Counted from the first letter of the stretch, positions 4,217 to 52,635 are shown. The stretch: DNA of 64,000 bases from Gemmatimonadales bacterium (GCA_019637315.1 JAHBVU010000019.1:1371-65370); one strand, 5' to 3'. Numbers and translations: made by a program. The notes: generated by a model from the sequence alone, not told the origin.

Positions 4217-6058
4217 ATGTCCTGGCTGCTTTCCATCCTCGTAGGCTTCCTCGCGGCGGCCGCCGGCGGCGTCATTGCCGGCGCCATCGCGTCGGGGGCG
4301 GTTTCCTGGTACCGGATCTCGAGCTTCGAAGGCGGCTCCGGCTACTTCGTCGTCGGCATGATCATCCTCGGCCTGATGGCCGGCCTGCTGATCGGTGTGA
4401 TCGGCGCCAGGATCGTGGCCGCCGGCCCGAATCCCGGCTTCCTCAAGGCGCTGGGTGTCGGGGTCGGTGTCGTGGTCGGTCTGGGCGTTCTGATCGGTGG
4501 GGCGGCCCGGCTCCTCGCCGACGTACCGCCGACGGTTGGCGGGCAGGAGTTGCACGTCATGGTCGAGGTTCGCTGGCCCGAGGGTGAGCCGGTTCCGGAC
4601 CCGGAGAGCACCAGGGCCCGGATCGCGCTCGGCTCGGTCAGTGGTGCTCGGGTGCTGCGCGGGTCCTCGGATGGTCCGCTCTGGCTCGGCGACGTTCGAC
4701 TCGAGGAGGGGCGGCAGGTCGTGCCCGGTGCGGTCGAGCTGTTCACCGAGCGCGGCAAGCGGGTCATCGACATCCAGGTCGGCGACTCGAGCCTCGCCGG
4801 TTTTCTGCTGCCGATACCGCGCCGGCCCGGGCGGAGGCACTTCGAGTGGAGTCCCTGGTACCCGACGCCGCGCGGCGGATCCGAACCGTGGCCCCCGCAC
4901 AAGTTCTCGATTCGCTACCGGATCCAGCCGCGCGACCAGCCGGTTCGGGTCGATCGGATCGGTGACTTCGAGGTGGCCACGATCGCATGGGGATTCTGGG
5001 CCGAATCGGGGGGGCGCCTCGCCGCCAGCGCCGAGTACCTGATCAGCCACCGCGGCCAGCCGGTGGATTTCGCGGTCGACACGGCCAGCAACGGACCGGT
5101 GCCGGGCGCTGCGCATCGAGCGCAAGCTGTCGGAGTCGTCGTCGGCGCGACCCCGGCGCTGGTGGCGGCTGTACCCGGCAGGGCAGCGTCCCGGCACTGC
5201 TATCTGGTGGTCCCGGCCGGCGACTCGGCGCGGGTCGAGCGGATCGGCCCCTGCGGCTACACGGTCGATGCCGATCTGCTGACCTCCGATACGGCACAGT
5301 TCTGGGCCCACCGGTCCCGCACGACGGTGCGGGGGACGATCGACCGGGTCACCTATCGCGAGCCCGGTCGCTATCAGGTGGGCGACGCGGTGCTCGATAC
5401 CCGCCGCCTCACGATCCAGCCGCTGCCGCAGTTTCCCAGCGAGACCAGTCAGCCGTCGGACGTTCCGCCGCTCGGCATTTCACCGGATGAGCGGAGCCTG
5501 GTGCGCTTCGTCTATCATGGCTATTCGGTCAGCACGACGGTGTTGCTCGACGTGGATCTGGTGGCGGGCACGGCGACGATGTTGCCGATCGACCGGAATC
5601 GGATGCGCTACGCCGAGGGAAGCGAACTCGACCCCGCCTGGGTGCTGCACCACTTCGAGTGGGTCCGCGGCGCCGACGGGATCGATCGTCTCAGGGAGCG
5701 ACCGAACTTCACGCCGCTACCCTATCGGGGTCGGATCTCCACCGCGCACGACGGGGGGCACTACTACACCTTGAAGCCGGCCGGCCAGGCGCTGGCGGAC
5801 GCGGTGGTCGAGTTCCTGGTTGCGGAGCTGGGAGGGACGGTGCTGCCTCGCGGGGAGTACGCCACCTGGGACAAGGTCCGGATTGGCGAGCGGACCGTCA
5901 GCGTGATGGCTACCGGCAGCGCCGCCGAGGCATACGTGATGGTGTCGCTCGAAATCGGCGAGAAGGACCCGGCTCTGATTCCGGACGTGGCGCGTCGGTT
6001 CGATGCGGCGCTCGCGACCGGCCGGTACGACGCGCTGTTCGGCGTTCCCGAGTCGTGA
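4217..6058 (+). CDS. Hypothetical membrane protein (3 predicted N-terminal TM helices plus a ~480-aa domain I do not recognise)
   Basis: 613-aa ORF with high GC3 and a Gly/Ala/Ile-rich hydrophobic N-terminus. I recognised no motif. Confidence 0.6.
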   Translation: MSWLLSILVGFLAAAAGGVIAGAIASGAVSWYRISSFEGGSGYFVVGMIILGLMAGLLIGVIGARIVAAGPNPGFLKALGVGVGVVVGLGVLIGGAARLLADVPPTVGGQELHVMVEVRWPEGEPVPDPESTRARIALGSVSGARVLRGSSDGPLWLGDVRLEEGRQVVPGAVELFTERGKRVIDIQVGDSSLAGFLLPIPRRPGRRHFEWSPWYPTPRGGSEPWPPHKFSIRYRIQPRDQPVRVDRIGDFEVATIAWGFWAESGGRLAASAEYLISHRGQPVDFAVDTASNGPVPGAAHRAQAVGVVVGATPALVAAVPGRAASRHCYLVVPAGDSARVERIGPCGYTVDADLLTSDTAQFWAHRSRTTVRGTIDRVTYREPGRYQVGDAVLDTRRLTIQPLPQFPSETSQPSDVPPLGISPDERSLVRFVYHGYSVSTTVLLDVDLVAGTATMLPIDRNRMRYAEGSELDPAWVLHHFEWVRGADGIDRLRERPNFTPLPYRGRISTAHDGGHYYTLKPAGQALADAVVEFLVAELGGTVLPRGEYATWDKVRIGERTVSVMATGSAAEAYVMVSLEIGEKDPALIPDVARRFDAALATGRYDALFGVPES

Positions 6059-6861: not shown

Positions 6862-8984
6862 GGGCCGTCGAGCCGGTTCGGGCCGGGTACGCCGAGCGCG
6901 AGGGGGTACGCCTCTATTACGAGGTGTTCGGCGAGGGCAGCCGCCCGACCCTCTTTCTGCTCCCCACCTGGTCGATCATCCATTCGCGGCAGTGGAAAGC
7001 GCAGGTACCATACCTCTCGCGCCACTTCGGCGTCCTGACCTATGACGGACGCGGCAACGGCCGCTCCGACCGACCCCAGACCCCCGAAGCGTACACTGCG
7101 GCAGAGTACGCCCGGGACGCGCTGGCGGTGATGGACGCCGCCGGGACGGAGCGCGCCGTGCTGGTCTCGCTGTCGATTGGTGCCCAGCATGCGCTCCGGC
7201 TGGCGGCGGACCACCCCGAGCGAGTGGACGGGATGGTCTTCATTGCCGCGACCGTTCCGCTTGCCCCGGGACATTCCGTGCGCAGCGCCCACTCCTTCAC
7301 CGAGCCGCTCGCCACCACGGAAGGGTGGGCGCGCTACAATGCCCCGTACTGGCGTCGTGATTTCGTCGGCTTCCTCGAGTTCTTCTTCTCGCGGATGTTC
7401 AGCGAGCCGCATTCGACCAAGCAGATCGAAGATTGCGTGGCCTGGGGGCTCGAAACGGATCCCGAAACGCTGATCGCCACGGCCCGGGCTCCCTGGCTCA
7501 CCGAAGCGGAGACGCTGGCGCTGTGCGGCCTGGTTCGCTGTCCAGTGCTCGTGCTGCACGGCGACCAGGATGAGATCAGTCCGCCCGCTCGCTCCGTGGC
7601 GCTGGCCCATGCCACCGGAGGGGCGCTGGTTACCCTCGAGGGCTCCGGCCACGGTCCCCACGGGCGCGACCCGGTGACGGTGAACCTTCTGGTGCGAGAC
7701 TTCGCCGGGAGCATCGCTGCGCATCAGGATGCGCAGCCGAGTGCTGCGCCGCCGCCCGCAGTCTGGCGGCGGGCGCGGGCCCGGAAGCGGCGGGCGCTCC
7801 TCGTGTCCTCACCGATTGGCCTGGGCCACGCGCGCCGGGGTCTCGCGATTGCGAGGGAGCTCCGCCGGCTGGTGCCGGACCTCGAGATCGACTGGCTGGC
7901 GCAGGACCCCGTGACCCGCGTGCTGGAGGCGGAAGGGGAGCGGATCCATCCCGCCAGTGCGCACCTGGCCAATGAGTCGCGTCACATCGAGAGTGAGTCG
8001 GGCGAGCATGACCTGCACGTCTTCCAGGCGTGGCGGCGCATGGACGAGATCCTGCTTGCCAACTTCATGGTCTTCCTCGATCTGGTGCGTGCGGAGCCGT
8101 ACGACCTCTGGATCGGCGACGAGGCGTGGGAACTCGACTACTACCTGCACGAGAATCCCGAGCTCAAGACCGCGGCCTACGTCTGGCTGAGCGACTTCGT
8201 GGGATGGCTGCCCATGCCGGACGGCGGGGAGCGGGAGGCCGCACTCACGGCCGACTACAACGCGGAGATGATCGCTCAGATCGCGCGGTACCCGCGGGTC
8301 CGCGACCGCTCGATCTTCATCGGCGACGCGGACGACATCGTTCCGGAGCGCTTCGGCCCCGGCCTGCCGTGGATCCGCGAATGGACCGAGGCGCACTTCC
8401 GGTTCTCCGGCTACATCGGCGGTTACGACCCGGCCGAACTTCCGGAGCGCAGCCGGCTTCGTGCCGAGCTGGGCTACGGACCTGACGAGCAGGTCTGTCT
8501 CGTCACGGTGGGTGGCTCCGGCGTGGGACGTGACCTGCTGGCGCGCACCGTCGCGGCCTTCGACGAGGCGCGCCAGCGGGTGCCGGTGCTCCGGATGGTG
8601 GCGGTTGCCGGCCCGCGGATCGACCCGCGTGGTTTCGGGGAGCGGGAGGGACTCGAGGTCCTTCCCTATGTGCACGGACTCTATCGCCACCTGGCGGCGG
8701 CCGACTTCGCCGTGGTGCAGGGTGGGCTCAGCACCACGATGGAACTCGTGGCGGCCGAACGACCCTTCCTGTACGTCCCGCTGCGGCATCACTGTGAACA
8801 GAACTTCCACGTGCACCACCGGCTGCTGCGCTACGGCGCCGGTCGGAAGCTGGATTTCGACGAGGCGTCGCCCGCGGCCATCGCGGAGGCGATTGCGAGT
8901 GATATCGGCCGCACCGTCCGCTACCGACCGGTCCGGTCCGGTGCTGCGCGGCGAGCGGCAGAGATCATTGCCGAACTGCTCTGA
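6858..8984 (+). CDS. Fusion protein: N-terminal alpha/beta hydrolase plus C-terminal GT-B glycosyltransferase (MurG/GT28-like)
   Basis: ATG 6858 overlaps the TetR stop (ATGA). The hydrolase part has YDGRGNGRSD and VSLSIGA (nucleophile-elbow-like). The GT part has LLVSSPIGLGHARRGLAIAREL and ...QGGLSTTMELVAAERPFLYVPL. It is one uninterrupted frame. Confidence 0.75.
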   Translation: MRAVEPVRAGYAEREGVRLYYEVFGEGSRPTLFLLPTWSIIHSRQWKAQVPYLSRHFGVLTYDGRGNGRSDRPQTPEAYTAAEYARDALAVMDAAGTERAVLVSLSIGAQHALRLAADHPERVDGMVFIAATVPLAPGHSVRSAHSFTEPLATTEGWARYNAPYWRRDFVGFLEFFFSRMFSEPHSTKQIEDCVAWGLETDPETLIATARAPWLTEAETLALCGLVRCPVLVLHGDQDEISPPARSVALAHATGGALVTLEGSGHGPHGRDPVTVNLLVRDFAGSIAAHQDAQPSAAPPPAVWRRARARKRRALLVSSPIGLGHARRGLAIARELRRLVPDLEIDWLAQDPVTRVLEAEGERIHPASAHLANESRHIESESGEHDLHVFQAWRRMDEILLANFMVFLDLVRAEPYDLWIGDEAWELDYYLHENPELKTAAYVWLSDFVGWLPMPDGGEREAALTADYNAEMIAQIARYPRVRDRSIFIGDADDIVPERFGPGLPWIREWTEAHFRFSGYIGGYDPAELPERSRLRAELGYGPDEQVCLVTVGGSGVGRDLLARTVAAFDEARQRVPVLRMVAVAGPRIDPRGFGEREGLEVLPYVHGLYRHLAAADFAVVQGGLSTTMELVAAERPFLYVPLRHHCEQNFHVHHRLLRYGAGRKLDFDEASPAAIAEAIASDIGRTVRYRPVRSGAARRAAEIIAELL

Positions 8985-9053
8985 CTGAAGGCTTTCGGGC
9001 GGGAGCCGGTTCGTCCCGCCGTGTCTCCATACTCCTTCGACCGGGAGGCTCTG

Positions 9054-9836
9054 ATGCGTCGCACTCTCTACCTTGTCTACGGGCTGGTCGCCTACGCGCT
9101 CTTCTTCGGCACCTTCCTCTACGCCATCGGATTCGTTGGCAACCTGGTGGTGCCGAAGTCGATCGATTCCGGTACGCCGGGCTCGCCGATGGCCGCGTTC
9201 CTGGTCAACGCCCTCCTGCTCACCCTCTTTGCCGTGCAGCACAGCGGGATGGCGCGACCCGGATTCAAACGCTGGTGGACCCGTCTCGTGCCCGAGCCGG
9301 TCGAGCGCAGCACCTATGTGCTGCTCGCCAGCCTGACGCTGCTCGCCCTCTTTGCGTTCTGGCGTCCGCTCCCGCAGGTGGTCTGGGACGTGGGCGGGGG
9401 TACCCTTGCCGGCGCGGTGCTGCTAGGCCTCTTTGCGCTGGGTTGGCTGATCGTGCTGCTGTCGACGTTCATGATCGGGCACGCCAACCTCTTCGGCCTC
9501 GAGCAGGTCTGGACGAACCTGCTTGGTCGGATGCGCGGCGACGATCAGTTTCGGACGCCGCTGCTCTACGGACTGGTGCGTCACCCGATCATGCTGGGCT
9601 TCCTGATCGCGTTCTGGGCCACACCGGTCATGACGGTTGGGCACCTGCTCTTCGCGGTCGCCACGACGGGATACATTCTGATCGCCACGCGGCTCGAGGA
9701 GCGCGACCTGATAGCCCATTTCGGCGATCGCTATCGCGAGTACCGGCGCCGGGTCCCTGCGTTCCTGCCCGTGCCGCGGGTCGGGCGTCATGCCGAGGTC
9801 CGGGACGGGGAACGGGGACGGGCCGGCGCGAGCTGA
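9054..9836 (+). CDS. ICMT/PEMT-like membrane methyltransferase, MddA-like (methanethiol S-methyltransferase family candidate)
   Basis: 260 aa and multi-TM. C-terminal motif [21 protein letters not shown]...[30 protein letters not shown] lies 5 nt upstream of ATG 9054. Confidence 0.65.
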
Positions 9837-27602: not shown

Positions 27603-29624
27603 ATGAAGCTAACTCGTATCGGCGCCATCCCAACAGCGTTACTGCTCCTCCCGCTGGTCGGGGCGCCCCTCCAGGCGCAGAGCCCGGCCGTCGCCAAGCT
27701 GGTGGCGGAGCCGACGGCCCTGCGGATTCAGGCCGGTGACTCGACCCGGATCCGGATCCGGGCCTATGACGCCCAGGGTCGCGAGATTGCCGACCCGGAG
27801 GTCCGGGTTTTCGGCACCCGCCGAGCGGTCGCCTACAGTGACGGTATGGTCCACGCCCTGGCGGCCGGAACTCATACTCTGACAGCGGCGGCCCAGGGCT
27901 CGGGCGGAAGTCCGATCATGCTGGAAATCCCGGTGACCGTGACTTGGCCACAGATCACTAAGCTGGAGATTGTGGCCGATCAGGGCAAGCTCTACACCGG
28001 GGTGACCCTGGCTCACCGGGCCCGGGGCCTTCACGCCGACGGCAGCGAGCGACCGGGACTGGCCCCGACCTGGCGCAGTTCCGACCCGTCGGTGGCCACG
28101 GTCGACCGGTTCGGCAACGTCCGCGGCGTCAAGCCGGGCACGGTGACGATCTCGGCACAGGATGCCGGGGCGTCGGCTACGCTGACGCACACGGTTGCTG
28201 CACATCCGGTCACGGCGCTGGAGATTTCGCTGCCCGACTCGACGCTCAGGACCGGCGACGTGATCCACCTCAAGGCCGTGGCTCGGGGTGCCGGAGGACG
28301 GGTCGTGACCGACGCTCCGGTCACCTGGAGCTACAGCTATGTGCCCGCCGACACCGTGGCGCCGTCGGGGCTTCCAGGTGGATCCGGCATCGTTCAGTTC
28401 GGACGCTTCGCGGCGAACCATCCGGGGCGGTACACCGTCATGGCGCGGTCCGGGACCGCCTTTGCCGAGAAGACGCTCGAGGTCGTCGAGCGGAGTGCCC
28501 GGCGCCCAATTCAGATCACTGCCCGTGGCAACATCAACCACGTGCACACCTCCGATCTCTGGCCCTGGGCAGGGAAGGACGGCCGCGACTATGCGCTGGT
28601 CGGGACCTGGGGCGGCGACGGCTATGCCTACGTCTTCGACATTACGGACCTCAATAACCTGGTCAAGACCGACTCGATCAAGATCGACGCCCGCACCATC
28701 AACGACGTCACGGTGTCACCCGACGGCCGCTACGGAGTGCTGGCGCGTGAAGGCGCGTCGAACCGGATCAACGGCGTCGTGATTCTCGATCTGGCCAATC
28801 CGCGGCACCCCAAGGTCGCGTCGACCTTCGAGCAGGAACTCACCGGCGGCGTGCACAACATGTTTGCCACCGATGACTACCTCTACGCCATCTCCGGCGG
28901 GGCCAAGTACGTCATCATCGACATGAGCGACATTTACAAGCCGAAGTATGTCAGCGAGTACCGCCACCCGAATGCCCGGATTCACGATCTCTGGGTCAAG
29001 GACGGCATTGCCTACTCGGCGCAGGGCGGGGCGGGGACGGTGGTTGTCGACGTTGGCAACGGGAAGTGGGGCGGCTCGCCCCAGAATCCGAAGCTGATTA
29101 CGACCTACGCGGTCAACAGCGGTCACGAAATCTTCCCGTACTACCAGGAGTCGACCGGGCGGACCTACCTGTTCATCGGCGACGAAGAGATGAACCGGTC
29201 CAATCGGGTCTGGGCCGGCACCAACTATCGCAACGAGATGACCACACCGGGCGGCGTACCGCAGACGTCCGGCGGATACGTCCATATCGTCGACTTCACC
29301 GATCCGATGAAGCCGATGCCGGTGGGCCGTTATCACATCGAGGACTTCGGTGCGCACGACATCATCGTCAAGGACGACGTGCTCTACCAGGCCTACTATG
29401 AAGGTGGCGTGCGGGTCGTCGATGTCTCCGGCGAGCTGATGGGCAACCTGGTCGACCAGGGCCGTGAGATTGCCGTGTTCAAACCGTACGATCCGAAGGG
29501 CTTCACGCCCAATGCGTCGTTCGTGATGAACGCCATGCCGTGGAAAGGGCATGTGCTCTTCACGGACTTCAACACGGGTCTGTGGGCGGCGCGGGTCATG
29601 CCGAAGGAAACGCTGACGCCCTGA
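27603..29624 (+). CDS. Secreted protein with Big_2-like Ig domains followed by LVIVD-repeat beta-propeller
   Basis: Signal ...PLVGAPLQAQ. Ig-like repeats (VATVDRFGNVRGVKPGTVTISA). LVIVD-type repeats GVVILDL, KYVIIDMS, GTVVVDVG, YVHIVDFT and GVRVVDVS. Confidence 0.8.
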   Translation: MKLTRIGAIPTALLLLPLVGAPLQAQSPAVAKLVAEPTALRIQAGDSTRIRIRAYDAQGREIADPEVRVFGTRRAVAYSDGMVHALAAGTHTLTAAAQGSGGSPIMLEIPVTVTWPQITKLEIVADQGKLYTGVTLAHRARGLHADGSERPGLAPTWRSSDPSVATVDRFGNVRGVKPGTVTISAQDAGASATLTHTVAAHPVTALEISLPDSTLRTGDVIHLKAVARGAGGRVVTDAPVTWSYSYVPADTVAPSGLPGGSGIVQFGRFAANHPGRYTVMARSGTAFAEKTLEVVERSARRPIQITARGNINHVHTSDLWPWAGKDGRDYALVGTWGGDGYAYVFDITDLNNLVKTDSIKIDARTINDVTVSPDGRYGVLAREGASNRINGVVILDLANPRHPKVASTFEQELTGGVHNMFATDDYLYAISGGAKYVIIDMSDIYKPKYVSEYRHPNARIHDLWVKDGIAYSAQGGAGTVVVDVGNGKWGGSPQNPKLITTYAVNSGHEIFPYYQESTGRTYLFIGDEEMNRSNRVWAGTNYRNEMTTPGGVPQTSGGYVHIVDFTDPMKPMPVGRYHIEDFGAHDIIVKDDVLYQAYYEGGVRVVDVSGELMGNLVDQGREIAVFKPYDPKGFTPNASFVMNAMPWKGHVLFTDFNTGLWAARVMPKETLTP

Positions 29625-29643
29625 TTCGCGTCGTTCGGTCTTT

Positions 29644-29690
29644 GTCGCCCGTCGAACCTGGATCCGGTTCGGCGGGCGACATTTTTTGGG
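29644..29690 (+). terminator. Rho-independent terminator after the LVIVD gene
   Basis: About 15-bp stem GTCGCCCGTCGAACC/GGTTCGGCGGGCGAC followed by ATTTTTTGG. Confidence 0.85.
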
Positions 29691-29756
29691 GCGGTGATCC
29701 GGCGCTTCGAGTGGCAGGCGGATCTGCCGCCTGCCGACCGGATGCCGGATCAATCG

Positions 29757-31274
29757 CTATCGTTTGCGGAGCTCCAGATACGAAGCAACCGAGAAGAAGA
29801 GCGGATCGATGCCGGTCTGGGCGCTGGCCTGACCGCGTAGAACGCCATTGACGAGACGCAGGTCGAAGGCGACGGTATGGGACACCCAATCGACGTCGGG
29901 TGTCGGAATGGTGCCGGCAAAACGGCCGCTCAGGACGCCGTCACGGTAGCTTGGCATGTTGACCAGGGCGCGGAGCTGTTTGCGAAGCAAAGGGTCATCG
30001 CCTGGACGCATCGCCTCGCCGATCTGGGTCTGCATTTCGCCTGATGACCGGACTTCCAGCTCGAAGGGAAGGGTTCTGGTCCAGGTACGCAGCGTGCCGG
30101 TCCAGGTGCCGACCAGCTCGGCCGGTGGCGCGAATGCGGCTGGCGCGGGCGTCGGTCGGGGCCGGGCGCGCTCCGCTTTGAGCGAATCGGCGTAGCCGGG
30201 CAGGATGACGGCAGCCGCCTCGCTCAGGACGTCGCCGAACGGTGCGGCCGACGCGTTGGTCAGCACCACGATGACGGCGTTGGCTTCCGGATAGAGGTGG
30301 AGGATGGTGCTGACTCCAGGCATCCCGCCGCTGTGCTGAACCAGCCGGTGTCCGCGATCCTGACCGACGACCCATCCCAGGCTGTAGTGCGAACCAAAGG
30401 CCGGTGTCTCCGGGCGCTGCATCTCGTCGATTCGCGATGCAGGCAGAATGGCCCGCTGCTCGGCTAGCTTGTTCTTGAGGTGGAACATGCCGAAGCGCAC
30501 CAGGTCGTGCGCGCTGGAGTAGACGGCCGACCCGCCCGGATGATCGAAGGTGTAGAACGGCACCGGTTTGCCTCTCCAGTACCGCTCGGCGACATAGGGC
30601 TCGAGTCCGGGGGCGATATCGATCGAAGTCCGGGTCAGTCCCAACGGCAGGAAGACTTCGTTCCGCATGAAATCGGCGTAGGTGCGGCCGGACACCCGGC
30701 TGATGATATCGTCCAGAATCCCGTAGCCAAGGTTCGAGTACTGGAAGGTCTCGCCAGGTGCGGAGACCAGGATGCCGTAGCGACCGACGGTTTCATCCAT
30801 CGAAGGGCGGCGGCGGGTTGCCTCGTTGTCGTAAAAGAACTGGTAGTGAAGAGGCAGGCCCGAGGTGTGCGCCAGGATTCGTCGGACCGTGGCACCCGAG
30901 GCATCGCCGGCCAGACCGGTAATCTTACCGAAGCCGAGGTAGTCGTTGGCGGGCCGATCGAGATCCACCTGACCGCGGTCGACGAGAAGCATCAGGCCGG
31001 TGGCCGTGATCGGCTTGGAGATCGAGGCCAGCGAGAACATGGTGTGCTCGGTGGCCGGGATGAGTTTTTCTCGGTTGGCCCAACCGAAACCCTCCTCCCA
31101 GACGATCTTGCCGTCTTTGGCAACGGCAACCGCAACGGCGGCGACACCGCGCTCGACGACCAGGCGGTTGGCGGCTTCGCGCACGGGTTGCCAGCGATCG
31201 GGGCGCGGTGAACTTTGGGCGCCGATCAGGGTCGGCGTCAGGGCAAGGAGGATCAGGCCAAACGATCGTCGCAT
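29757..31274 (-). CDS. Serine hydrolase, beta-lactamase/PBP-like
   Basis: Signal peptide and SxxK motif (ASISKPIT). 505 aa. Confidence 0.85.
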   Translation of the reverse strand: MRRSFGLILLALTPTLIGAQSSPRPDRWQPVREAANRLVVERGVAAVAVAVAKDGKIVWEEGFGWANREKLIPATEHTMFSLASISKPITATGLMLLVDRGQVDLDRPANDYLGFGKITGLAGDASGATVRRILAHTSGLPLHYQFFYDNEATRRRPSMDETVGRYGILVSAPGETFQYSNLGYGILDDIISRVSGRTYADFMRNEVFLPLGLTRTSIDIAPGLEPYVAERYWRGKPVPFYTFDHPGGSAVYSSAHDLVRFGMFHLKNKLAEQRAILPASRIDEMQRPETPAFGSHYSLGWVVGQDRGHRLVQHSGGMPGVSTILHLYPEANAVIVVLTNASAAPFGDVLSEAAAVILPGYADSLKAERARPRPTPAPAAFAPPAELVGTWTGTLRTWTRTLPFELEVRSSGEMQTQIGEAMRPGDDPLLRKQLRALVNMPSYRDGVLSGRFAGTIPTPDVDWVSHTVAFDLRLVNGVLRGQASAQTGIDPLFFSVASYLELRKR

Positions 31275-31378
31275 CGTCGCGGCTCACGGTGGAGATGTGG
31301 ACTGGTGTTGCGGTTGGGATCCTGCAAGTTATCGTCATGCCCCGATCCGGCGCGAGGTGTGGGGACCCTCGAGCCACT

Positions 31379-31407
31379 TTACAATCTCGAGGTCTCCAGA
31401 TTATCGT
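31379..31407 (+). promoter_or_regulatory. Candidate sigma70-like promoter TTACAA-17-TATCGT for the Cys-leader / dsbD-N / tlpA unit
   Basis: Hexamers read directly in a locally AT-richer stretch. The predicted TSS is near 31414. Confidence 0.35.
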
Positions 31408-31442
31408 CCTCCCTCGACACTACTGATGTTCGGAGTTTGCTG

Positions 31443-31514
31443 ATGCCGCTGGTCCGCGCCACTGTCGCCTGTTGTTGTCCCCTCGAATCCGGGTGGGGCG
31501 GCGCGCGGCTATAG
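31443..31514 (+). CDS. Candidate leader peptide MPLVRATVACCCPLESGWGGARL (23 codons, three consecutive TGT Cys codons)
   Basis: ATG with GGAG 7 nt upstream. TGT TGT TGT lies at 31470-31478. The sequence was confirmed from ORF-track frame 31215..31514. A terminator lies downstream. Confidence 0.45.
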   Translation: MPLVRATVACCCPLESGWGGARL

Positions 31515-31559
31515 CAGCATAGTCTATCGCGCCACGGCGGCGCGCAGTCAGATCGCTTC

Positions 31560-31595
31560 CGGCCCACCCTGTTCACGGGTGGGCCGTTTTCGTTG
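31560..31595 (+). terminator. Intrinsic terminator inside a 5' leader (attenuator candidate)
   Basis: CGGCCCACCC-tgttcac-GGGTGGGCCG followed by TTTTCGTTG. It sits 60 nt upstream of the dsbD-N-like start codon, with no gene ending before it on this strand apart from the mini-ORF. Confidence 0.75.
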
Positions 31596-31656
31596 TGGCC
31601 TGCCCGAGACCTGACTTGTCAGTGGACGGTCGTACCTCGGCGTAAGGAAGGAACCA

Positions 31657-32130
31657 ATGCAGGTCTCATTGAAGCTGGTTATCTGGTTGTCCGTGCTCGC
31701 GGTGTCGAGCGCTCAGGCGCAGGGCCCTGATCCGGTTCGCTGGTCGGTGGCAATCGTGCCGACGCGTGGGGGCACCCCGGACGTGGTCACCCTTGCGGTG
31801 ACGGCGTCGATCGAACCTGGCTGGAAGGTGTATTCGCTGACCCAGACATCGGGCGGGCCCTATCCCCTGCGGATCGCGCCGGGCGGCGAGTCGGTCGTGC
31901 TGGCGGGCGCCGTCACGGGTCCGACGCCGATCGTTCAGGAAACATCGGCATTCGGTATTCCGGTCGAGGTCTATGGCGGCGAGCCCCGATTCGTGGTGCC
32001 AGTTCGGGTTGGCTCAGGAGGATCGAAGGCCGGGGCCGAACTGCGCGTCCGCTACCAGGCCTGCACCGAGACCACCTGCCTGCCGCCCCGGACCGCCACC
32101 CTCGTTGCGCAGCTGCCAGGAGCCCGGTGA
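31657..32130 (+). CDS. DsbD N-terminal (alpha) domain-like thiol-disulfide protein, secreted
   Basis: Signal peptide and the C-terminal motif RVRYQACTETTCLPP (YQxC...C.PP typical of DsbD_N-like domains). AAGGAAGGA SD. Confidence 0.7.
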   Translation: MQVSLKLVIWLSVLAVSSAQAQGPDPVRWSVAIVPTRGGTPDVVTLAVTASIEPGWKVYSLTQTSGGPYPLRIAPGGESVVLAGAVTGPTPIVQETSAFGIPVEVYGGEPRFVVPVRVGSGGSKAGAELRVRYQACTETTCLPPRTATLVAQLPGAR

Positions 32131-33350
32131 TGCTGGAACTGAGCAGTCTCGCGCGTGGGTGGGTTGCCATCGGGCTGCTGACTCTTGGCTCGGCAGGTCT
32201 CGCGGCGCAGGAGCCCAGCGGCCGCTGGACCGGCACGATCAGCTATGACTCGTTGCGCATCGACTTTCCGCTCGAATGGGCCGTCGAGTCGGGGCGCCAG
32301 CTGGTTCGGCTCTACAACGGCGACCTGCCGGTGACCTCGACGGCAGTGCATCGGCAGGGCGACTCCGTCGTGGTCGAGTTTGCCCACCTGGCCACGAGGT
32401 TCGAAGGCGTGCTCGAGGGCGGCGCCTTCCGGGGTCGCTATGGCAACGAGCGGCGCGGTTACCATCCGGTCGAGGCGGCGCCGACCCTCGAGGCGGCACG
32501 ATTCGCAGCCGGGGCCCCTCGGATCGACGGAGAGTGGTACCTGCCGGTCGAAACCGCCAAGGGCGAGCGCGCCTGGCGTTTCGTGGTACGGCAGGACGGA
32601 TCGCAGCTGTCCGCGACGATCCTCCGGGTGGACGGCGATGCCGGAGCTCTCACGGGCGGCTGGACGGGGTCCAGGTTCGTGCTCAGCCATTTCGCCGGAA
32701 CCCGTCCGGCGCGGCTCGAGATCGATCCGCAGTCGGATGGCACGCTCCGGCTGACGCTTCATGCGCCGCGGGGAGCGCCCCGAAGCTTCGAGGCGATCCG
32801 ACCCGAGCTGGCCCGTGCCCGGGGGCTCCCCGAGCCCGCCGACGTCGCGACGCACACCAGGGTTCGCGATCCGAAAGAGCCGTTCACCTTTGCGTTTCCC
32901 GATCTCGACGGTCGGCTGGTCACGGAGCGGGACGCCCGCTTTGTCGGCAAGGTCATCGTGGTGAATGTCACCGGCAGCTGGTGCCCCAACTGCCACGACG
33001 AGGCGCCCTTCCTGGCCGATCTCTACCGGCGCTATCGGGACCGGGGGCTCGAGGTCGTCGCCCTGGACTTCGAAGAAGCGGAGGAACTGGAGGATCTCAG
33101 CCGGCTGCGCGCGTTCGTCGCCAGGTATGGCATCGAGTACCCGTACCTCGTGGCGGGCGAGCCCGGCGAGGTCGCTGCCAAGCTGCCGCAGGCCGTCAAC
33201 CTGAACACCTGGCCCGCCACCTTCTTCATCAACCGGGAAGGCCGGGTTCACGCGGTGCGAAGCGGCTTTGCCGCCAAAGCCAGCGGGTCGTATCACGACG
33301 CGCTGGTGCGGGAGTACATCGCCATCGTGGAGGGTCTGCTCGACCAGTAA
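32127..33350 (+). CDS. TlpA/ResA-family thioredoxin-fold thiol-disulfide oxidoreductase with a long N-terminal domain
   Basis: ATGA overlap with the upstream gene. CxxC motif VNVTGSWCPNCHDEAPFL in the C-terminal ~140 aa. Confidence 0.8.
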   Translation: MMLELSSLARGWVAIGLLTLGSAGLAAQEPSGRWTGTISYDSLRIDFPLEWAVESGRQLVRLYNGDLPVTSTAVHRQGDSVVVEFAHLATRFEGVLEGGAFRGRYGNERRGYHPVEAAPTLEAARFAAGAPRIDGEWYLPVETAKGERAWRFVVRQDGSQLSATILRVDGDAGALTGGWTGSRFVLSHFAGTRPARLEIDPQSDGTLRLTLHAPRGAPRSFEAIRPELARARGLPEPADVATHTRVRDPKEPFTFAFPDLDGRLVTERDARFVGKVIVVNVTGSWCPNCHDEAPFLADLYRRYRDRGLEVVALDFEEAEELEDLSRLRAFVARYGIEYPYLVAGEPGEVAAKLPQAVNLNTWPATFFINREGRVHAVRSGFAAKASGSYHDALVREYIAIVEGLLDQ

Positions 33351-33355
33351 GACTG

Positions 33356-33426
33356 GGCGCCGTGGCCAAGTGGTAAGGCAAGGGTCTGCAAAACCCTGAT
33401 CACCGGTTCGATTCCGGTCGGCGCCT
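33356..33426 (+). tRNA. tRNA-Cys: tRNA-Cys (anticodon GCA)
   Basis: Cloverleaf folded by hand. Acceptor GGCGCCG/CGGCGCC, anticodon stem AGGGT/ACCCT with loop CTGCAAA, T arm ACCGG-TTCGATT-CCGGT, discriminator U. CCA is not encoded. It starts 6 nt after the tlpA-like stop codon. Confidence 0.9.
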
Positions 33427-33448
33427 CTGGACTCCTCGAATGCAGGAC

Positions 33449-33480
33449 GGCCCGAGCAACCATGGCTGGTTGCCCGGGCC
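33449..33480. terminator. GC-rich hairpin between tRNA-Cys and the convergent glutamate dehydrogenase gene (bidirectional terminator candidate)
   Basis: GGCCCGAGCAACCA-tggc-TGGTTGCCCGGGCC, 13 bp with one mismatch. No strong T tract. Confidence 0.5.
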
Positions 33481-33503
33481 GCGGCCGGCGATCCTCGTGC
33501 GGC

Positions 33504-34916
33504 TTAGGGGAAGAGGCCCAGTTCCTCGTAGCTGACGGCAATCTTGTCGATGGCGGACACGAACGCTGCGGTGCGGAGGTCCGTCGGGCCCTTGGGCCGG
33601 AGCAGGATGTCGCGAATCTGGTGGTAGGCTACGGCCATGGAGTCTTCCAGGCCCGAGTTGACCAGATCCTCTTCGCTTGCTCCGTGGGCAATCCGATCGA
33701 GCTCGGCCTGATCGATGGCACGTCCGGTCGACTGCTGGACCAGATTCAGGATGCCCAGGTTCGATTGCTCTTCGAAGCGCCGCTGCATGCGTCCGAAACG
33801 GACGTGCGAGAGGTTCTTGAGCCATTCGAAGTACGAGACGGTGACACCACCGGCATTGAGATAGAAGTCGGGAATGATGTAGACGCCCCGCGCTTTGAGG
33901 ATGCCGTCTGCCTCCGCCGTGGTTGGTCCGTTGGCCGCCTCGCCGATGATCTTGGCTTTGATGCGCGGAGCGTTGTCCGCGGTAATCACATTCTCGAGAG
34001 CGGCAGGGATCAGGATATCGCAGTCGAGTTCGAGCGCAGCGATCGACTGTGGGATATCCTGAGCCCCCGGATAACCCAGGATCGACTTGTTGGTTTTCCG
34101 GTGCTGCATCACCCGGTCGAGGTCGAGACCCTTCGGGTTGCTGATTGCGCCTTCATACTCGGCCAGCCCAACCAGCACGGCGCCCTGCTCCTGGAGAAAC
34201 TTGGCGGCGTAGTAGCCCACATTGCCGAGACCCTGGATCACGACCCGCTTCCCGGCCAGCCCGGGAGTCAAACCGAGCTTCTTCATGTCGTCGGCGACGT
34301 TGCAGGCTTCGCGCAGGCCGAACATCACCCCTCGACCGGTGGCTTCGGTGCGGCCCCGGATTCCACCCTGCGAAGCAGGCTTGGCGGTCACGCAGGCCAT
34401 CGCATTCAAGTCATTGCTCAGGCTGCGGTAGGTGTCGGCAATCCAGGCCATTTCGCGCGAGCTGGTGCCGTAGTCGGGCGCCGGAACGTCCACGCCAGGT
34501 CCGATGAAGTTCTTGCGCCAGAGCTCGAAGGTGTAGCGCCGGGTTATCCGCTCGAGCTCCGCAGCCGAGTACTTGTGGCGAGCAATCCGGATGCCGCCCT
34601 TGGCGCCACCGAAGGGCACATCCAGCAGGGCGCACTTGAACGTCATCAGCGACGCGAGACCCATCACCTCGTCGGCCGTGACGGCCATCGAGTAGCGGAT
34701 CCCGCCCTTGGTCGGCATCCGATGGTGGCTGTGTTCCGCGCGCCAGGCGTGAATCACCTCGATCGTGCCGTCGTCGCGACGAAGCGGGAAGGTCATCTGA
34801 TAGACGGCATTGCATGCCTTGATGTGCGCCAGCAGGGTCGGGTCGTGCGGGGTCAGGGCCGCGGCCTGGTCGAACATGGCTTCGACCTGCGCGAGGAGAC
34901 TGACTTCGGTCGTCAT
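33504..34916 (-). CDS. Glu/Leu/Phe/Val dehydrogenase family (glutamate dehydrogenase)
   Basis: Motifs TKGGIRY and VPFGGAKGGI. Rossmann GLGNVG. Start at MTTEVSLLAQ with GGGAG SD. Confidence 0.9.
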   Translation of the reverse strand: MTTEVSLLAQVEAMFDQAAALTPHDPTLLAHIKACNAVYQMTFPLRRDDGTIEVIHAWRAEHSHHRMPTKGGIRYSMAVTADEVMGLASLMTFKCALLDVPFGGAKGGIRIARHKYSAAELERITRRYTFELWRKNFIGPGVDVPAPDYGTSSREMAWIADTYRSLSNDLNAMACVTAKPASQGGIRGRTEATGRGVMFGLREACNVADDMKKLGLTPGLAGKRVVIQGLGNVGYYAAKFLQEQGAVLVGLAEYEGAISNPKGLDLDRVMQHRKTNKSILGYPGAQDIPQSIAALELDCDILIPAALENVITADNAPRIKAKIIGEAANGPTTAEADGILKARGVYIIPDFYLNAGGVTVSYFEWLKNLSHVRFGRMQRRFEEQSNLGILNLVQQSTGRAIDQAELDRIAHGASEEDLVNSGLEDSMAVAYHQIRDILLRPKGPTDLRTAAFVSAIDKIAVSYEELGLFP

Positions 34917-34947
34917 GACGGCTCCCGGATGTGAAGGTGTCGCGTGA

Positions 34948-36135
34948 TCAGTGCGGATGCGTGTGCCGGCGATGGTGTTCTCGGAGCAGGTCCTTGCCGT
35001 AGTCGTTGCCATTCGGGGTTCGGACCACGGCATGAATGTGGTGGCGGGTTGGCCCGGTTCCGTGCTCTCGCAGCGCAATCGGGCGCTGATGGTCGAACTC
35101 GATCAGAATGACGGGGCTGTGGATTCGGTAGTAGAAGACGGCGTCGGGCTCGGTCGGCCCGATCCAGGCGAAATGGGTCCGGTCGAGGTGCGCCTCGACC
35201 TCGGCCATGCGCACCCGGGCGTGACCTTCCCGCATGTTGCCGACGTAGAGGCCGATCAGGTCCAGCAGCTGACGCCGCTGGCTGGGCGAAAACGAACGAG
35301 CCGACACACCGGCGTAGTCGAGCACGACGTTGTCACGAAAAGCCTCGGTCAGCGTGTTGACGCCTGCCTTGGCGCTGTCGATGATCGCCGCCTTGCGTTG
35401 ACCGGGCATCAGGGCATTGACCAGGGCCAGGCCGGCGTCCTGCTCCTGCTGCAGGATCGAGACGCCCTGGTACTTGCCTGACGTCGCCGTGACAGGCTCG
35501 GAGCCGACGAACATCGGGGTCATCACCACCTGGTCGCCCAGGACGAAGTAGTTGATGATCAGGTGATGCCCGTCGAGCTGCCAGCCCCAGGGTTCGGTTT
35601 CCGAGGGCTCGCCCATGATGGTGATCCAGTAGAGCCACTCGCCGTACTCCTCGAAGTTGCCCGTCAGCTCCGCCAGCGTGTGATTGAGTCGCATGATGTC
35701 GCGGCTCAATCGCAGGCCCTTGGCGCTCAGCGAGGCGCCCAGCATGGCAAAGGCCGCCTCACGCTGGGCCTCGCTCATCTCCCTGAAGCCAACGCCCTGG
35801 CGAACGTAGAAATGCTGGTTCATCCATTTACGCCACTCGGGGTCGTCGTCGGCAAAGAGCGTCTTGGCTTGCTGAATCGGGGTCAGAGACTTGATGAAGG
35901 TGCGTGCGGCCTCCACGGCAGGAGCTGTGGAGACACCGGTCGATCGAATTGGAAAGAGGCCAGTGAGCGGGGTGCCGTCGGTAGTGATGCCCTTGAACGG
36001 CTCGGCGAGGCCGCGGGCTTCCGCCTCGCGGGACAGCCGCGCTGCGCGGGCCGCGGTACTCTCCTGCTGCGCTCCGAGCTCTGGTACTCCGACTGTTACG
36101 AGCAGACTCACAACGGTGACGGCCAGCAAGCGCAT
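34948..36135 (-). CDS. DUF3500 domain-containing secreted protein
   Basis: Signal peptide. The [14 protein letters not shown] motif matches my memory of the DUF3500 'W.w..GHHl..n' core. Confidence 0.6.
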
Positions 36136-49228: not shown

Positions 49229-49257
49229 TTGACCCTGGTGGGTCGGTCGCTTAGAGT
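49229..49257 (+). promoter_or_regulatory. Sigma70-like promoter TTGACC-17-TAGAGT placing the TSS at the ATG of the poly-Cys mini-ORF
   Basis: Hexamers at 49229-49234 and 49252-49257, verified against the antisense ORF translation. The ATG lies 6 nt after the -10. Confidence 0.5.
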
Positions 49258-49263
49258 CCCTGG

Positions 49264-49359
49264 ATGCAGCTGGTTCACTCCGTGACCCCCGCAGTACCCC
49301 CTGTGTGCCTCTCCCGCCTCGTCGGGACGGGTCACCAGGACTGTTGTTGTTGCCGCTAA
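49264..49359 (+). CDS. Candidate leaderless leader peptide MQLVHSVTPAVPPVCLSRLVGTGHQDCCCCR (31 codons)
   Basis: ATG at the predicted TSS. TGT TGT TGT TGC at 49342-49353, then CGC TAA. Confirmed via the antisense ORF (..SLAATTTV..). Confidence 0.45.
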   Translation: MQLVHSVTPAVPPVCLSRLVGTGHQDCCCCR

Positions 49360-49420: not shown

Positions 49421-50410
49421 ATGTCGTTTCCATCGGGGACACTTCCCGTTGCGGTGTACTATGAGCACCCGGACTGGTTCAAGCCGCTTTTTGCCGAGCT
49501 CGATCGGCGCGGGATTCCCTGGGTTGCCCTGGATGCTGCGGCGCACGAGTACGATCCGGCCGACCTGACGCGCCACTATTCGCTGGTCGTCAACCGCAAC
49601 AGCCCGTCGGCCTATCTCCGGGCCCATGGTCAGGCCACGTTCCATACTCTCAACTGGCTTCGTCACGTCGAGCGTACTGGCACTCCGGTCGTCAACGGCT
49701 CGGCGGTCTATGGGCTCGAGATCTCGAAAGCGTTCCAGGTCGAGGTCCTTTCCGAGCTCGGCCTGCCGGTGCCGCGTGCACTCGTCATCAATCATGCCTC
49801 CCGGGCAGCCTCGGCAGCACAACGGTTGCGGTATCCGGTGGTCGTCAAGGCCAATATCGGCGGCAGCGGCGCGGGAATCGTCCGTTTCGATTCCGAAGCC
49901 CAATTGACCGAGGCCGTCGCGGCCGGCCGGATCGATCTCGGTGTCGATGGGACTGCCCTGGTTCAGGAACTGGCTCCACTGTCCGGGGGGCGGATTACCA
50001 GAGTCGAGGTCCTCGACGGCAAGTTCCTCTATGCCATCAACGTCTATCCGACTGGAGAGTCGTTCAACCTCTGCCCGGCCGACATCTGCCAGACGACGGA
50101 AGGGCGGGCGCTGGATCGCACCTTCTGCGCAGCAGACGCACCCAGGACCGGGATGCGGGTCGAGCGGGCGGATCCTCCCGCTCACATCATCGCGCAGGTC
50201 GAGAGGATCGCCCGTCATGTGCATCTCGATATCGGCGGCATCGAGTATCTGGTCGATGAGCGCGACGGTGAGCACTACTTCTACGATATCAATGCACTGT
50301 CGAATTTCGTTGCCGACGCCCCGAACGTGATCGGGTTCGACCCGTTTGCCCGCTTCGTGGATTATCTCGAAGTGCGAGCGGGTCTGGTCGCACGGGCTCT
50401 GGGTGCCTGA
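49421..50410 (+). CDS. ATP-grasp domain protein (RimK/GshB-like ligase)
   Basis: 329 aa. GAGG SD 8 nt upstream. ATP-grasp pattern (YPVVVKANIGGSGAGIVRF..., GGIEYLVDERDGEHYFYDINALSNF). Confidence 0.8.
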   Translation: MSFPSGTLPVAVYYEHPDWFKPLFAELDRRGIPWVALDAAAHEYDPADLTRHYSLVVNRNSPSAYLRAHGQATFHTLNWLRHVERTGTPVVNGSAVYGLEISKAFQVEVLSELGLPVPRALVINHASRAASAAQRLRYPVVVKANIGGSGAGIVRFDSEAQLTEAVAAGRIDLGVDGTALVQELAPLSGGRITRVEVLDGKFLYAINVYPTGESFNLCPADICQTTEGRALDRTFCAADAPRTGMRVERADPPAHIIAQVERIARHVHLDIGGIEYLVDERDGEHYFYDINALSNFVADAPNVIGFDPFARFVDYLEVRAGLVARALGA

Positions 50411-50412
50411 CG

Positions 50413-51462
50413 ATGCGTTTCGGATACTGGTTGCCGGTGTTCGGCGGGTGGCTTCGCAACGTTCCGGATGAGGGCATGGATGCGTCGTGGAGCTATGTCA
50501 GCCGCCTCGCGCGCCGCAGCGAAGAGATCGGCTTCGATCTGACGCTGATTGCCGAGTTGTTCCTCAACGATATCAAGGGTGTGAACGCTCCCTCGCTCGA
50601 CGCCTGGTCCACTGCGGCAGCGCTGGCGGCAGTTACGCAGCGGCTCGAGCTGATGGTTGCCGTGCGGCCGACCTTTCACCAGCCGGCCATCCTGGCCAAG
50701 CAGGCAGCCGCGATCGATCACATCTCCGGAGGCCGGCTGGCCCTCAACGTGGTCTCCTCGTGGTGGGCGGACGAGGCGCGACGGTACGGGGTGCGATTCG
50801 ATCAGCACGACGACCGATACGCCCGCACCGCGGAGTGGCTGGCGGTGGTCGACGGGGTCTGGCGAGAGCCCGAGTTCTCCTTCGACGGTACCTACTATCA
50901 GGTCGAGGGAACGATTCTCGAACCCAAGCCGGTGCGCCGGCCTCGACCGCCGATCTATGCCGGCGGCGAGTCGTCGGCGGCGAAGCGTCTGATCAGCCAG
51001 CAGTGCGATGCGTATGTGATGCACGGCGACCCGATTGAGGTGGTCTCAGCCCGGATCGGTGAGTTGTCCGCGCTGAGAGAGGCAGCAGGGCTGCCGCGGC
51101 TGTCCTTCGGCATGGCCGCCTATGCTATCGTGCGCGATACCGAGCAGGAGGCGGCCCGGGAGCTGGAGCGAATCACCAACGTCACTCCGGGCTCGCCCGG
51201 GTACGGCAACTATCGCGACTGGATCGCCAATACCCAGCTCGAGCGTCAGGTGTCGCTGCAGGATTACTCGGTATCCAACCGGGGGCTGCGGGCGGGCTTG
51301 ATCGGCACGCCGGAGCAGGTGGCGGAGCGGATTGCGGCCTTCGAAGCCGCAGGAGTCGACCTTCTGCTGTTACAATTCAGTCCGCAGGCAGAGGAGATGG
51401 AGCGCTTTGCCGACCAGGTCATCGGTCGGCTCAGCGCGACCCCCGCCGGGGGTGGTGCCTGA
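50413..51462 (+). CDS. LLM-class flavin-dependent monooxygenase (SsuD/SfnG/RutA-like group)
   Basis: 349 aa. Starts 2 nt after the ATP-grasp stop. Motifs AKQAAAIDHISGGRLALNVVSSWW and DDRYARTAEWL. Confidence 0.85.
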   Translation: MRFGYWLPVFGGWLRNVPDEGMDASWSYVSRLARRSEEIGFDLTLIAELFLNDIKGVNAPSLDAWSTAAALAAVTQRLELMVAVRPTFHQPAILAKQAAAIDHISGGRLALNVVSSWWADEARRYGVRFDQHDDRYARTAEWLAVVDGVWREPEFSFDGTYYQVEGTILEPKPVRRPRPPIYAGGESSAAKRLISQQCDAYVMHGDPIEVVSARIGELSALREAAGLPRLSFGMAAYAIVRDTEQEAARELERITNVTPGSPGYGNYRDWIANTQLERQVSLQDYSVSNRGLRAGLIGTPEQVAERIAAFEAAGVDLLLLQFSPQAEEMERFADQVIGRLSATPAGGGA

Positions 51463-51537
51463 CCATGGGTCGGGCCGCCGCGATGATGCGGCGGCCTGAT
51501 CCCCATGGGCCGAACGTCGTCCTAACCCAGCCCATAG

Positions 51538-52635
<1,098 letters not shown>

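Follow-up and report, generated by a model that had tools for sequence, protein, structure and literature searches.

The amino acid attenuators of enterobacteria (trp, his, leu, thr and pheA) share a short ORF close to the promoter that repeats codons for one amino acid, rare ones among them, as well as the mutually exclusive pairings 1:2, 2:3 and 3:4 and a terminator with a U-tract. The thrU-tyrU-glyT-thrT-tufB unit of Escherichia coli is a mixed tRNA-mRNA operon, in which tRNAs and a coding gene share one transcript and are separated by RNase P. For cysteine, Cys-codon leaders without terminators have been predicted in Actinobacteria (Seliverstov et al., 2005; PMC1262725). In Mycobacterium smegmatis, leaderless polycysteine short ORFs act on translation (Canestrari et al., 2020; 10.1101/834739). 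These mycobacterial elements hide the Shine-Dalgarno sequence by pairing with the Cys tract, and no terminator hairpin is present (10.1101/834739). The authors of that study state that no earlier description existed of attenuation for cysteine by a uORF. In Mycobacterium tuberculosis, depletion of tRNA-Cys by VapC4 stalls ribosomes on the Cys codons of short ORFs and triggers Cys attenuators (PMC13096801). A tRNA-Cys gene within a Cys-leader unit is described in neither 10.1101/834739 nor PMC1262725. The literature that could be searched contained no case of a tRNA gene placed behind an attenuator that senses the same tRNA; many subscription papers lay beyond the search, and this is absence of evidence only.

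The DNA stretch analysed here, referred to as the window (64,000 nt), has a G+C content of 66.8%, and assemblies of Gemmatimonas and Gemmatimonadales are closest to it. It contains a putative transcription unit with the order promoter, Cys-codon leader with attenuator, dsbD_N, tlpA-like gene and tRNA-Cys (Table 1). The elements named above for the enterobacterial attenuators recur in its leader. In contrast to these attenuators, the leader is predicted to sense cysteine, to control periplasmic thiol:disulfide oxidoreductases instead of biosynthetic enzymes, and to head a unit that ends in the gene for the sensed tRNA; it matches no Rfam family. With the mycobacterial polycysteine attenuators it shares the Cys run of a short upstream ORF as predicted sensor of Cys-tRNA(Cys) and a signal common to several operons, and a second Cys-run short ORF of the window is leaderless like the mycobacterial ones. 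The leader at 31443, in contrast, belongs to a different phylum and carries GGAG in its 5' UTR, together with a terminator/antiterminator of the canonical type; neither a leaderless start nor Shine-Dalgarno sequestration without a terminator was found for it. In the tufB unit of E. coli the tRNAs lie 5' of the coding gene and no attenuator for their own codon is present, whereas the tRNA of the window lies 3' of the genes and behind the attenuator. The VapC4 axis shows the premise of the feedback proposed below, namely that lowering tRNA-Cys itself, and not only cysteine, suffices. There, a toxin lowers tRNA-Cys in trans, whereas in the window the synthesis of tRNA-Cys would be the output of the attenuator. 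Known parts are combined at this locus, i.e. a classical attenuator, a Cys leader and a mixed tRNA-mRNA operon; what is unusual is the proposed role of the sensed tRNA as output of the sensor.

Table 1. Coordinates of the features of the putative tlpA-tRNA-Cys unit, counted from the first nucleotide of the window.
Feature	Position	Strand	Evidence and remarks
Promoter-like site TTTACA-18-TATCGT	31378-31407	+	Sole sigma-70-like site in 31000-34000
Leader short ORF MPLVRATVACCCPLESGWGGARL-stop, 23 codons, three consecutive TGT at 31470-31478	31443-31514	+	ATG at 31443, TAG ending at 31514; GGAG about 9 nt 5' of the ATG
Attenuator region 1, CCCCTCG (RNA CCCCUCG)	31479-31485	+	Sequence; directly 3' of the Cys codons
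Attenuator region 2, CGGGTGGGGCGG (RNA CGGGUGGGGCGG)	31490-31501	+	Pairs with the 5' arm of the terminator when the ribosome is masked at the Cys codons
Attenuator region 3, CCGGCCCACCC; region 4, GGGUGGGCCG	Within leader RNA	+	Duplex energies
Attenuator terminator, stem CGGCCCACCC / GGGTGGGCCG, then U-tract TTTTCGTTGT	31559-31596 (stem 31560-31586)	+	Scan; 10 bp, 9 G-C pairs
dsbD_N, stand-alone DsbD N-terminal-domain protein, 157 aa, signal-peptide-like N-terminus, CTETTC motif	31657-32130	+	Pfam PF11412, E = 4e-13
tlpA-like gene, TlpA/ResA-like thiol:disulfide oxidoreductase, 406-407 aa, WCPNC active site	32127/32130-33350	+	Pfam AhpC-TSA, Redoxin, Thioredoxin_8
Spacer gactg, 5 nt, from tlpA-like stop codon to tRNA position +1	33351-33355	+	Sequence; 4-9 nt in relatives
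tRNA-Cys(GCA), U73, CCA incomplete	33356-33427	+	ARAGORN; Rfam 67.8 bits; nearly identical in 8 related loci
G+C hairpin between tRNA-Cys and convergent gdh, arms 33449-33461 / 33468-33480	33449-33480		Conserved; stem covaries among relatives
gdh, glutamate dehydrogenase, convergent, marks the 3' limit of the unit	33504-35078	-	Pfam ELFV_dehydrog

The region 31000-34000 was scanned for sigma-70-type promoters and for terminators. The hexamers of the single promoter-like site are kept in the related loci L001, L161 and L162 as TTTACA ... TATTGT, and the leader ATG lies 36 nt past the -10 hexamer. Apart from the attenuator terminator, the only terminator-like site on the + strand of this region (31047-31059) is located 5' of the promoter. 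Cysteine accounts for 0.4% of the codons in 26 confident genes of the window, and TGT is the minor Cys codon (12 TGT versus 42 TGC); a chance run of three TGT is therefore very unlikely. In the relatives, the Cys codons and the C-terminal half of the leader are constant and the remaining residues vary. An earlier note on this DNA, prepared from the sequence alone, had pointed out that the GCA anticodon reads the TGT codons of the leader only by G-U wobble. The wobble is real, but it is the normal state in bacteria and no peculiarity of this leader; the rarity of UGU is what matters.

A minimum-energy fold of the entire leader always gave the terminator, with a z-score of only -0.8. It was uninformative, and folds of the partial transcript with ribosome masks were used instead; in these, the transcript before synthesis of region 4 was folded with the ribosome masks applied. 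Calculated duplex energies were -15.2 kcal/mol for 1:2, -22.9 kcal/mol for 2:3 and -23.5 kcal/mol for 3:4. In silico, the 2:3 antiterminator was formed only with a ribosome footprint on the Cys codons, and this applied to all four sequences folded (window, L001, L161 and L162). Without a ribosome, or with a ribosome at the stop codon, region 2 was held by region 1 or covered. The relatives keep the terminator; in L162, one C is replaced by T, and the pair concerned is G-U. The short ORF with its Cys run close to the promoter and an intrinsic terminator before the first structural gene are both present, and the folds predict an antiterminator that depends on ribosome position and competes with the terminator. 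The Cys-codon leader is, as modelled, a well-formed and credible transcription attenuator. The proposal of the earlier note that the tRNA-Cys gene lies 3' of a Cys attenuator is supported by the alternative pairings, the terminator with U-tract and the three rare TGT codons.

The start codon of the tlpA-like gene (ATG 32130) overlaps the stop codon of dsbD_N. The C-terminal 140 residues or so of the TlpA-like protein have a ResA/TlpA-type thioredoxin fold, and the PDB entries ResA, CycY and TlpA match residues 243-385 only. For residues 1-240 (32130-32850), no Pfam family and no PDB sequence was matched. Among 4966 homologues of the protein, this N-terminal part of about 240 residues is conserved in thousands, with invariant W34 and N64-G65 and a block at about 166-173 with the consensus ILRVDGDTG.

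The tRNA-Cys(GCA) gene is the only tRNA gene found by ARAGORN in the 64-kb window. It is canonical and scores well above the threshold of the Rfam tRNA model RF00005 (67.8 bits at 33356-33426; gathering score 29), and the model was the only match when Rfam was searched over 29000-36000. The GCA anticodon and the discriminator base U73 are the main identity elements for CysRS. Both are present: the cloverleaf carries the anticodon gca, and U73 corresponds to the T at 33426, which follows the acceptor stem CGGCGCC. The next bases are C-U-G. C74 is encoded and is followed by U-G, therefore the full CCA is absent from the gene. The tlpA-like stop codon is TAA (33348-33350) and the tRNA begins at the sixth base behind it, as had been claimed; the positions that the earlier note gave for the tRNA gene, its spacing and the hairpin behind it were all correct. 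A small hairpin, CCAG-taaga-CTGG (33344-33356), bridges the stop codon and tRNA position +1. When compared with L001, L161, L162 and L172, it shows a double change in L001 (CCGG/CCGG), requires a bulge in L161 and has a 2-nt insertion in L172. With so few sequences and the poor fit of L161 and L172, this hairpin is unproven.

Between the leader terminator and the tRNA (31597-33355, + strand), no promoter-like and no terminator-like site was found by the sigma-70-type and terminator scans. Two weak candidates inside the 3' end of tlpA were rejected: for TTTGCC-18-TATCAC (33268-33297) the -10 hexamer is lost in L001, and CATCGT (33323-33328) has no -35. A 30-nt identity profile over four diverged relatives showed no peak in the 3' end of tlpA, where conservation is at the level expected for coding sequence; with few sequences, the power of this profile is low. 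The statement that no promoter-like sequence separates the tlpA-like gene from the tRNA consequently agrees with the scans. Coding gene and tRNA lie on one strand, with nothing but the 5-nt spacer between them, as in a mixed tRNA-mRNA operon.

These results bear on the main rival explanation, which we consider unlikely: the tRNA would be expressed independently and constitutively from an unrecognised promoter of its own in the 3' end of tlpA, the attenuator would gate dsbD_N and tlpA only, and the tight spacing would reflect compaction or shared ancestry. The empty scan, the candidate hexamers that are not conserved and the flat identity profile argue against it. A weak or non-sigma-70 promoter inside tlpA is nevertheless possible, given that only four sequences with 82-85% identity (tlpA products of window, L001, L161 and L162) were available. 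In addition, tRNA genes normally have strong promoters of their own, and a strong terminator ahead of an essential tRNA with one gene copy carries a risk; should there be no other tRNA-Cys gene, production of the tRNA would hang on read-through of that terminator.

The first strong hairpin behind the tRNA is indeed the one at 33449-33480, but, as a correction to the earlier note, it fits the convergent gdh transcript better. The A.C mismatches of its + strand (window, L172 and L001) are G.U on the minus strand, and the minus-strand helix is more stable by 3-10 kcal/mol in four of five variants (window, L001, L161, L162 and L172). On the + strand of the window, no U-tract was found 3' of the hairpin. 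Thus, the hairpin is at least as much a terminator of gdh; probably this is its main role, and it possibly acts in both directions. Since it suits the opposite strand, the 3' end of the + transcript has no dedicated signal, which counts against the Cys-attenuated unit. The same lack would fit a different explanation, which we regard as quite improbable: the tRNA would be co-transcribed, but selected as a module for mRNA processing and stability, with RNase P setting the 3' end and the half-life, or as an extra copy supplied only under cysteine stress. The 5-nt spacer speaks for such a module as well, since cleavage by RNase P would strip protective 3' structure from the mRNA.

The layout of the window is kept in eight other loci of the Gemmatimonas clade (L001, L161, L162, L163 and L171-L174); of these, the short contig L163 overlaps L162 and breaks off inside the tRNA, and L171-L174 are near-identical. 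Promoter hexamers, leader, terminator, both genes, the tRNA 4-9 nt past the stop codon, the hairpin and the convergent gdh are common to L001, L161 and L162. In L171-L174, leader, terminator and tRNA are also kept together. A beta-lactamase-family gene (29757-31274, - strand) lies between a Big_2 gene and the leader promoter; it is present in the window, L161, L171 and L172, and L001 has 143 nt in its place. The difference, immediately 5' of the promoter, is due to an insertion or a deletion.

Seven more distant dsbD_N-tlpA operons (L164-L170; 54-59% identity) each have a strong terminator behind a Cys-run short ORF, e.g. MHAHVVTTCCCCCRSCDGSR-stop and MSSAMLLRDFTCCCPRCCALRCR..., and no tRNA was found within 4 kb. 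The Cys leader is kept there without the tRNA, and therefore belongs to the operon; the distribution indicates that the tRNA was added in the Gemmatimonas clade. Conservation of the tlpA-tRNA-Cys adjacency, which the earlier note had proposed as a check, accordingly holds for the eight clade loci and fails for L164-L170. This loss of adjacency with retention of the leader would fit a tRNA with its own promoter, and is a point against the Cys-attenuated unit.

Recurrence in other lineages was assessed in 160 loci (1.41 Mb) from two scans that were chosen by similarity to the TlpA-like protein alone; among the matches listed, the metagenome part is mostly acidobacterial. DsbD_N partners were identified by Pfam, as tblastn matched only L001 and L046. 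The 160 listed loci contain 17 tRNAs. Nine of these are tRNA-Cys(GCA), all on the strand of tlpA and all confirmed by Rfam (61-70 bits), and they fall into five gene arrangements. Arrangement A is dsbD_N-tlpA-tRNA in Gemmatimonas. Arrangement B (L046, Vicinamibacterales) comprises promoter, Cys short ORFs, terminator, tlpA, dsbD_N and, 12 nt later, the tRNA. In arrangement C (L009, L014, L092 and L100, Bryobacteraceae), the order is short ORF, ANTAR regulator, M19 dipeptidase, CXXCH protein, tlpA, Ser_hydrolase, tRNA, carbonic anhydrase and peroxiredoxin. Arrangement D has the tRNA in front: in L069 (Occallatibacter savannae AB23) it lies 5' of a short ORF ending in ...LHLCCC-stop, with the CXXCH gene and tlpA next in order, whereas L072 has it directly against the CXXCH gene, the first gene of the unit. 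In arrangement E (L123), tlpA and a GAF-ANTAR gene are followed by the tRNA 6 nt later.

With one tRNA-Cys gene per genome of 4.4-9 Mb, which the expectation assumes, 0.16-0.32 tRNA-Cys genes are expected in 1.41 Mb. Under the same one-copy assumption, the Poisson probability of five independent events is about 5e-6 (7e-7 to 2e-5), and the binomial probability that nine of 17 tRNAs in the 160 listed loci are tRNA-Cys is 3e-11. Chance is a poor explanation for the five arrangements at so low a probability. In these sequences, tRNA-Cys is strongly and repeatedly tied to the tlpA operon family, and it is usually located 6-12 nt from a coding gene or overlaps one. Expression from an own promoter is disfavoured by the same numbers, as five arrangements at a P of about 1e-5 or lower are explained neither by chance nor by ancestry. 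The processing module likewise accounts poorly for them: any tRNA would do, yet all nine linked tRNAs are tRNA-Cys.

Judged from gene order, L046 is an independent repeat of the wiring of the window, with leader and terminator first and tRNA-Cys last. Two tandem Cys-run short ORFs of this locus, at 2579-2677 (..GGVCMCCCLDGSEP-stop) and 2860-2937 (MQTKTLCGCCCRIRT..-stop), lie between a promoter-like site and the terminator, 5' of tlpA. In L009, the Ser_hydrolase ORF (7234-7941; likewise in L014, L092 and L100) enters the tRNA-Cys gene by 21 nt and stops at a TAA in the D-loop, and in the L009-type loci the carbonic anhydrase gene, with its own Shine-Dalgarno sequence, starts 35-45 nt past the tRNA. 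The tRNA of these loci is overlapped on its 5' side and the next gene follows within 35-45 nt, so it lies inside the operon, with no room for separate signals. A tRNA wedged between genes and overlapping one of them is difficult to reconcile with independent expression; its position inside an operon is compatible with the processing module. With the tRNA ahead of the leader in L069 and against the first gene in L072, a leader cannot gate it in either locus. These two loci would fit a tRNA with its own promoter, and they weigh against a Cys-attenuated unit as the general case.

Three further observations were made in these loci. The CXXCH ORF of L072 (4437-5897) has no in-frame ATG, GTG or TTG past the tRNA-Cys gene (4455-4530), and in-frame starts exist only upstream of the tRNA or inside it; the overlap between the CXXCH coding sequence and the tRNA gene therefore appears to be complete. 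L010 contains two tlpA paralogues 1.8 kb apart (4571-5758 and 7522-8661). In L069, a group II intron (8552-9178, - strand; Rfam 163 bits) is located about 1.3 kb 3' of the end of the tlpA ORF.

An origin of the adjacency in mobile DNA was also considered, in which an island that carried the operon integrated at tRNA-Cys. Homologues of tlpA are spread over many phyla and are also found on a plasmid of Singulisphaera, which suggests horizontal transfer. The operon, however, is located 4-12 nt 5' of the tRNA and not on its 3' side, a search of the window for the 22-nt 3' end of the tRNA gave a single match at a tolerance of up to 3 mismatches, no integrase is found beside the tRNA, where the neighbours are gdh, DUF3500 and the beta-lactamase-family gene, and the arrangements differ between lineages. 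With the operon 5' of the tRNA, no repeat of the 3' end and no integrase nearby, integrase-mediated insertion is a poor explanation, and we regard an island as very improbable.

In the reading that we prefer, tRNA-Cys forms the final cistron of a unit under Cys attenuation, and slow reading of Cys codons increases its synthesis; in our judgement the chances that this is correct are about even. Co-transcription of tRNA-Cys with dsbD_N and tlpA is the best reading, although not proven, because the layout is conserved and tRNA-Cys recurs in tlpA loci. Like co-transcription, the cysteine response, the RNA processing steps and the feedback loop are inferred.

In the proposed mechanism, transcription would start from the TTTACA/TATCGT promoter and a ribosome would translate the 23-codon leader. 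With plentiful Cys-tRNA(Cys), the ribosome would reach the stop codon, and region 2 would be kept from the terminator by the CCCC/GGGG pairing of 1:2 or by ribosome cover. The 10-bp terminator would then form, and most transcripts would end at about 31596. With scarce Cys-tRNA(Cys), the ribosome would stall on the three rare UGU codons, cover region 1 and free GGGUGGG for the 5' arm of the terminator. RNA polymerase would continue by antitermination through dsbD_N, tlpA and the tRNA. RNase P would cut 5 nt past the tlpA stop codon, the 3' trailer would be trimmed, and the CCA end would be completed enzymatically; release of the tRNA would leave the operon mRNA with an unprotected 3' end of 5 nt. 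Slow decoding of Cys codons would in this way raise the output of tRNA-Cys, as a negative feedback on its supply and as a feed-forward boost when cysteine is limiting. One argument against the Cys-attenuated unit is that extra tRNA is of no obvious help if the amino acid itself is limiting.

The leader of the tlpA unit is not the only one of its kind in the window. A second Cys-run short ORF, MQLVHSVTPAVPPVCLSRLVGTGHQDCCCCR-stop (49264-49359, + strand), ends in ...DCCCCR-stop, with three TGT codons and then TGC. A promoter-like site, TTGACC-17-TAGAGT (element 49229-49359), ends 6 nt 5' of its ATG, so the transcript would be leaderless; no terminator was found after the short ORF. The genes that follow (49421-52635) encode an ATP-grasp protein, a luciferase-like monooxygenase and an OYE-type flavin oxidoreductase. 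By sequence, this second ORF looks like a mycobacterial-type Cys attenuator in a relative of Gemmatimonas. Thus, the organism appears to sense Cys codons at several operons.

Cys-run short ORFs also head tlpA-containing operons in many acidobacterial and verrucomicrobial loci. In these phyla they are often located 6-12 nt past a TTGACA / -10 pair, and are hence leaderless. Examples are ...ISCCCCCR-stop, ...ACCCCR-stop, ...RPCCCRCC-stop and M.VVRCCECSCC... (then a terminator). A loose count of Cys-dense short ORFs gave 91 upstream on the + strand versus 46-52 in controls, i.e. about two-fold, and the individual promoter-adjacent Cys short ORFs are stronger evidence than this count.

In Acidobacteriota and Verrucomicrobiota, Cys-run or Cys-terminal leaders were also observed directly before the gene of a GAF-ANTAR or ANTAR-only regulator (L035 4208-5037, L030, L128, L130, L076, L009 2360-3292 and L123 1413-2153). 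Genes past the ANTAR regulator encode, for instance, an M19 dipeptidase, a PIG-L/LmbE-like deacetylase, a CXXCH protein of about 450 aa and TlpA. The combination of leader and ANTAR regulator suggests a two-tier cascade at the RNA level for cysteine or thiol stress.

A wider form of the preferred reading is tentative, and we would sooner doubt it than rely on it. It holds that tRNA-Cys within a Cys-attenuated operon is a recurrent, selected design of Gemmatimonadota and Acidobacteriota, in which the ligand of the sensor is also its output. One unit would then set the level of tRNA-Cys, and hence the set-point of every Cys-leader operon, as an autoregulated 'Cys ribulon'.

Cys-codon attenuation is extended by these loci beyond mycobacteria, where it acts on translation, to putative terminator-based attenuators in at least three phyla (Gemmatimonadota, Acidobacteriota and Verrucomicrobiota), and the Cys-codon signal is linked to extracytoplasmic thiol:disulfide oxidoreductases. 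A complete 4.4-Mb genome is on record for close relatives of the window organism, so that a practical and inexpensive system for tests is at hand. Attenuators appear in textbooks as sensors of charged tRNA, and the tRNA itself is treated as a fixed reagent; if the preferred reading is true, the sensor also has the gene of the tRNA that it senses as an output. The closed loop could then steady the supply of tRNA-Cys, or increase it under shortage or oxidation of cysteine.
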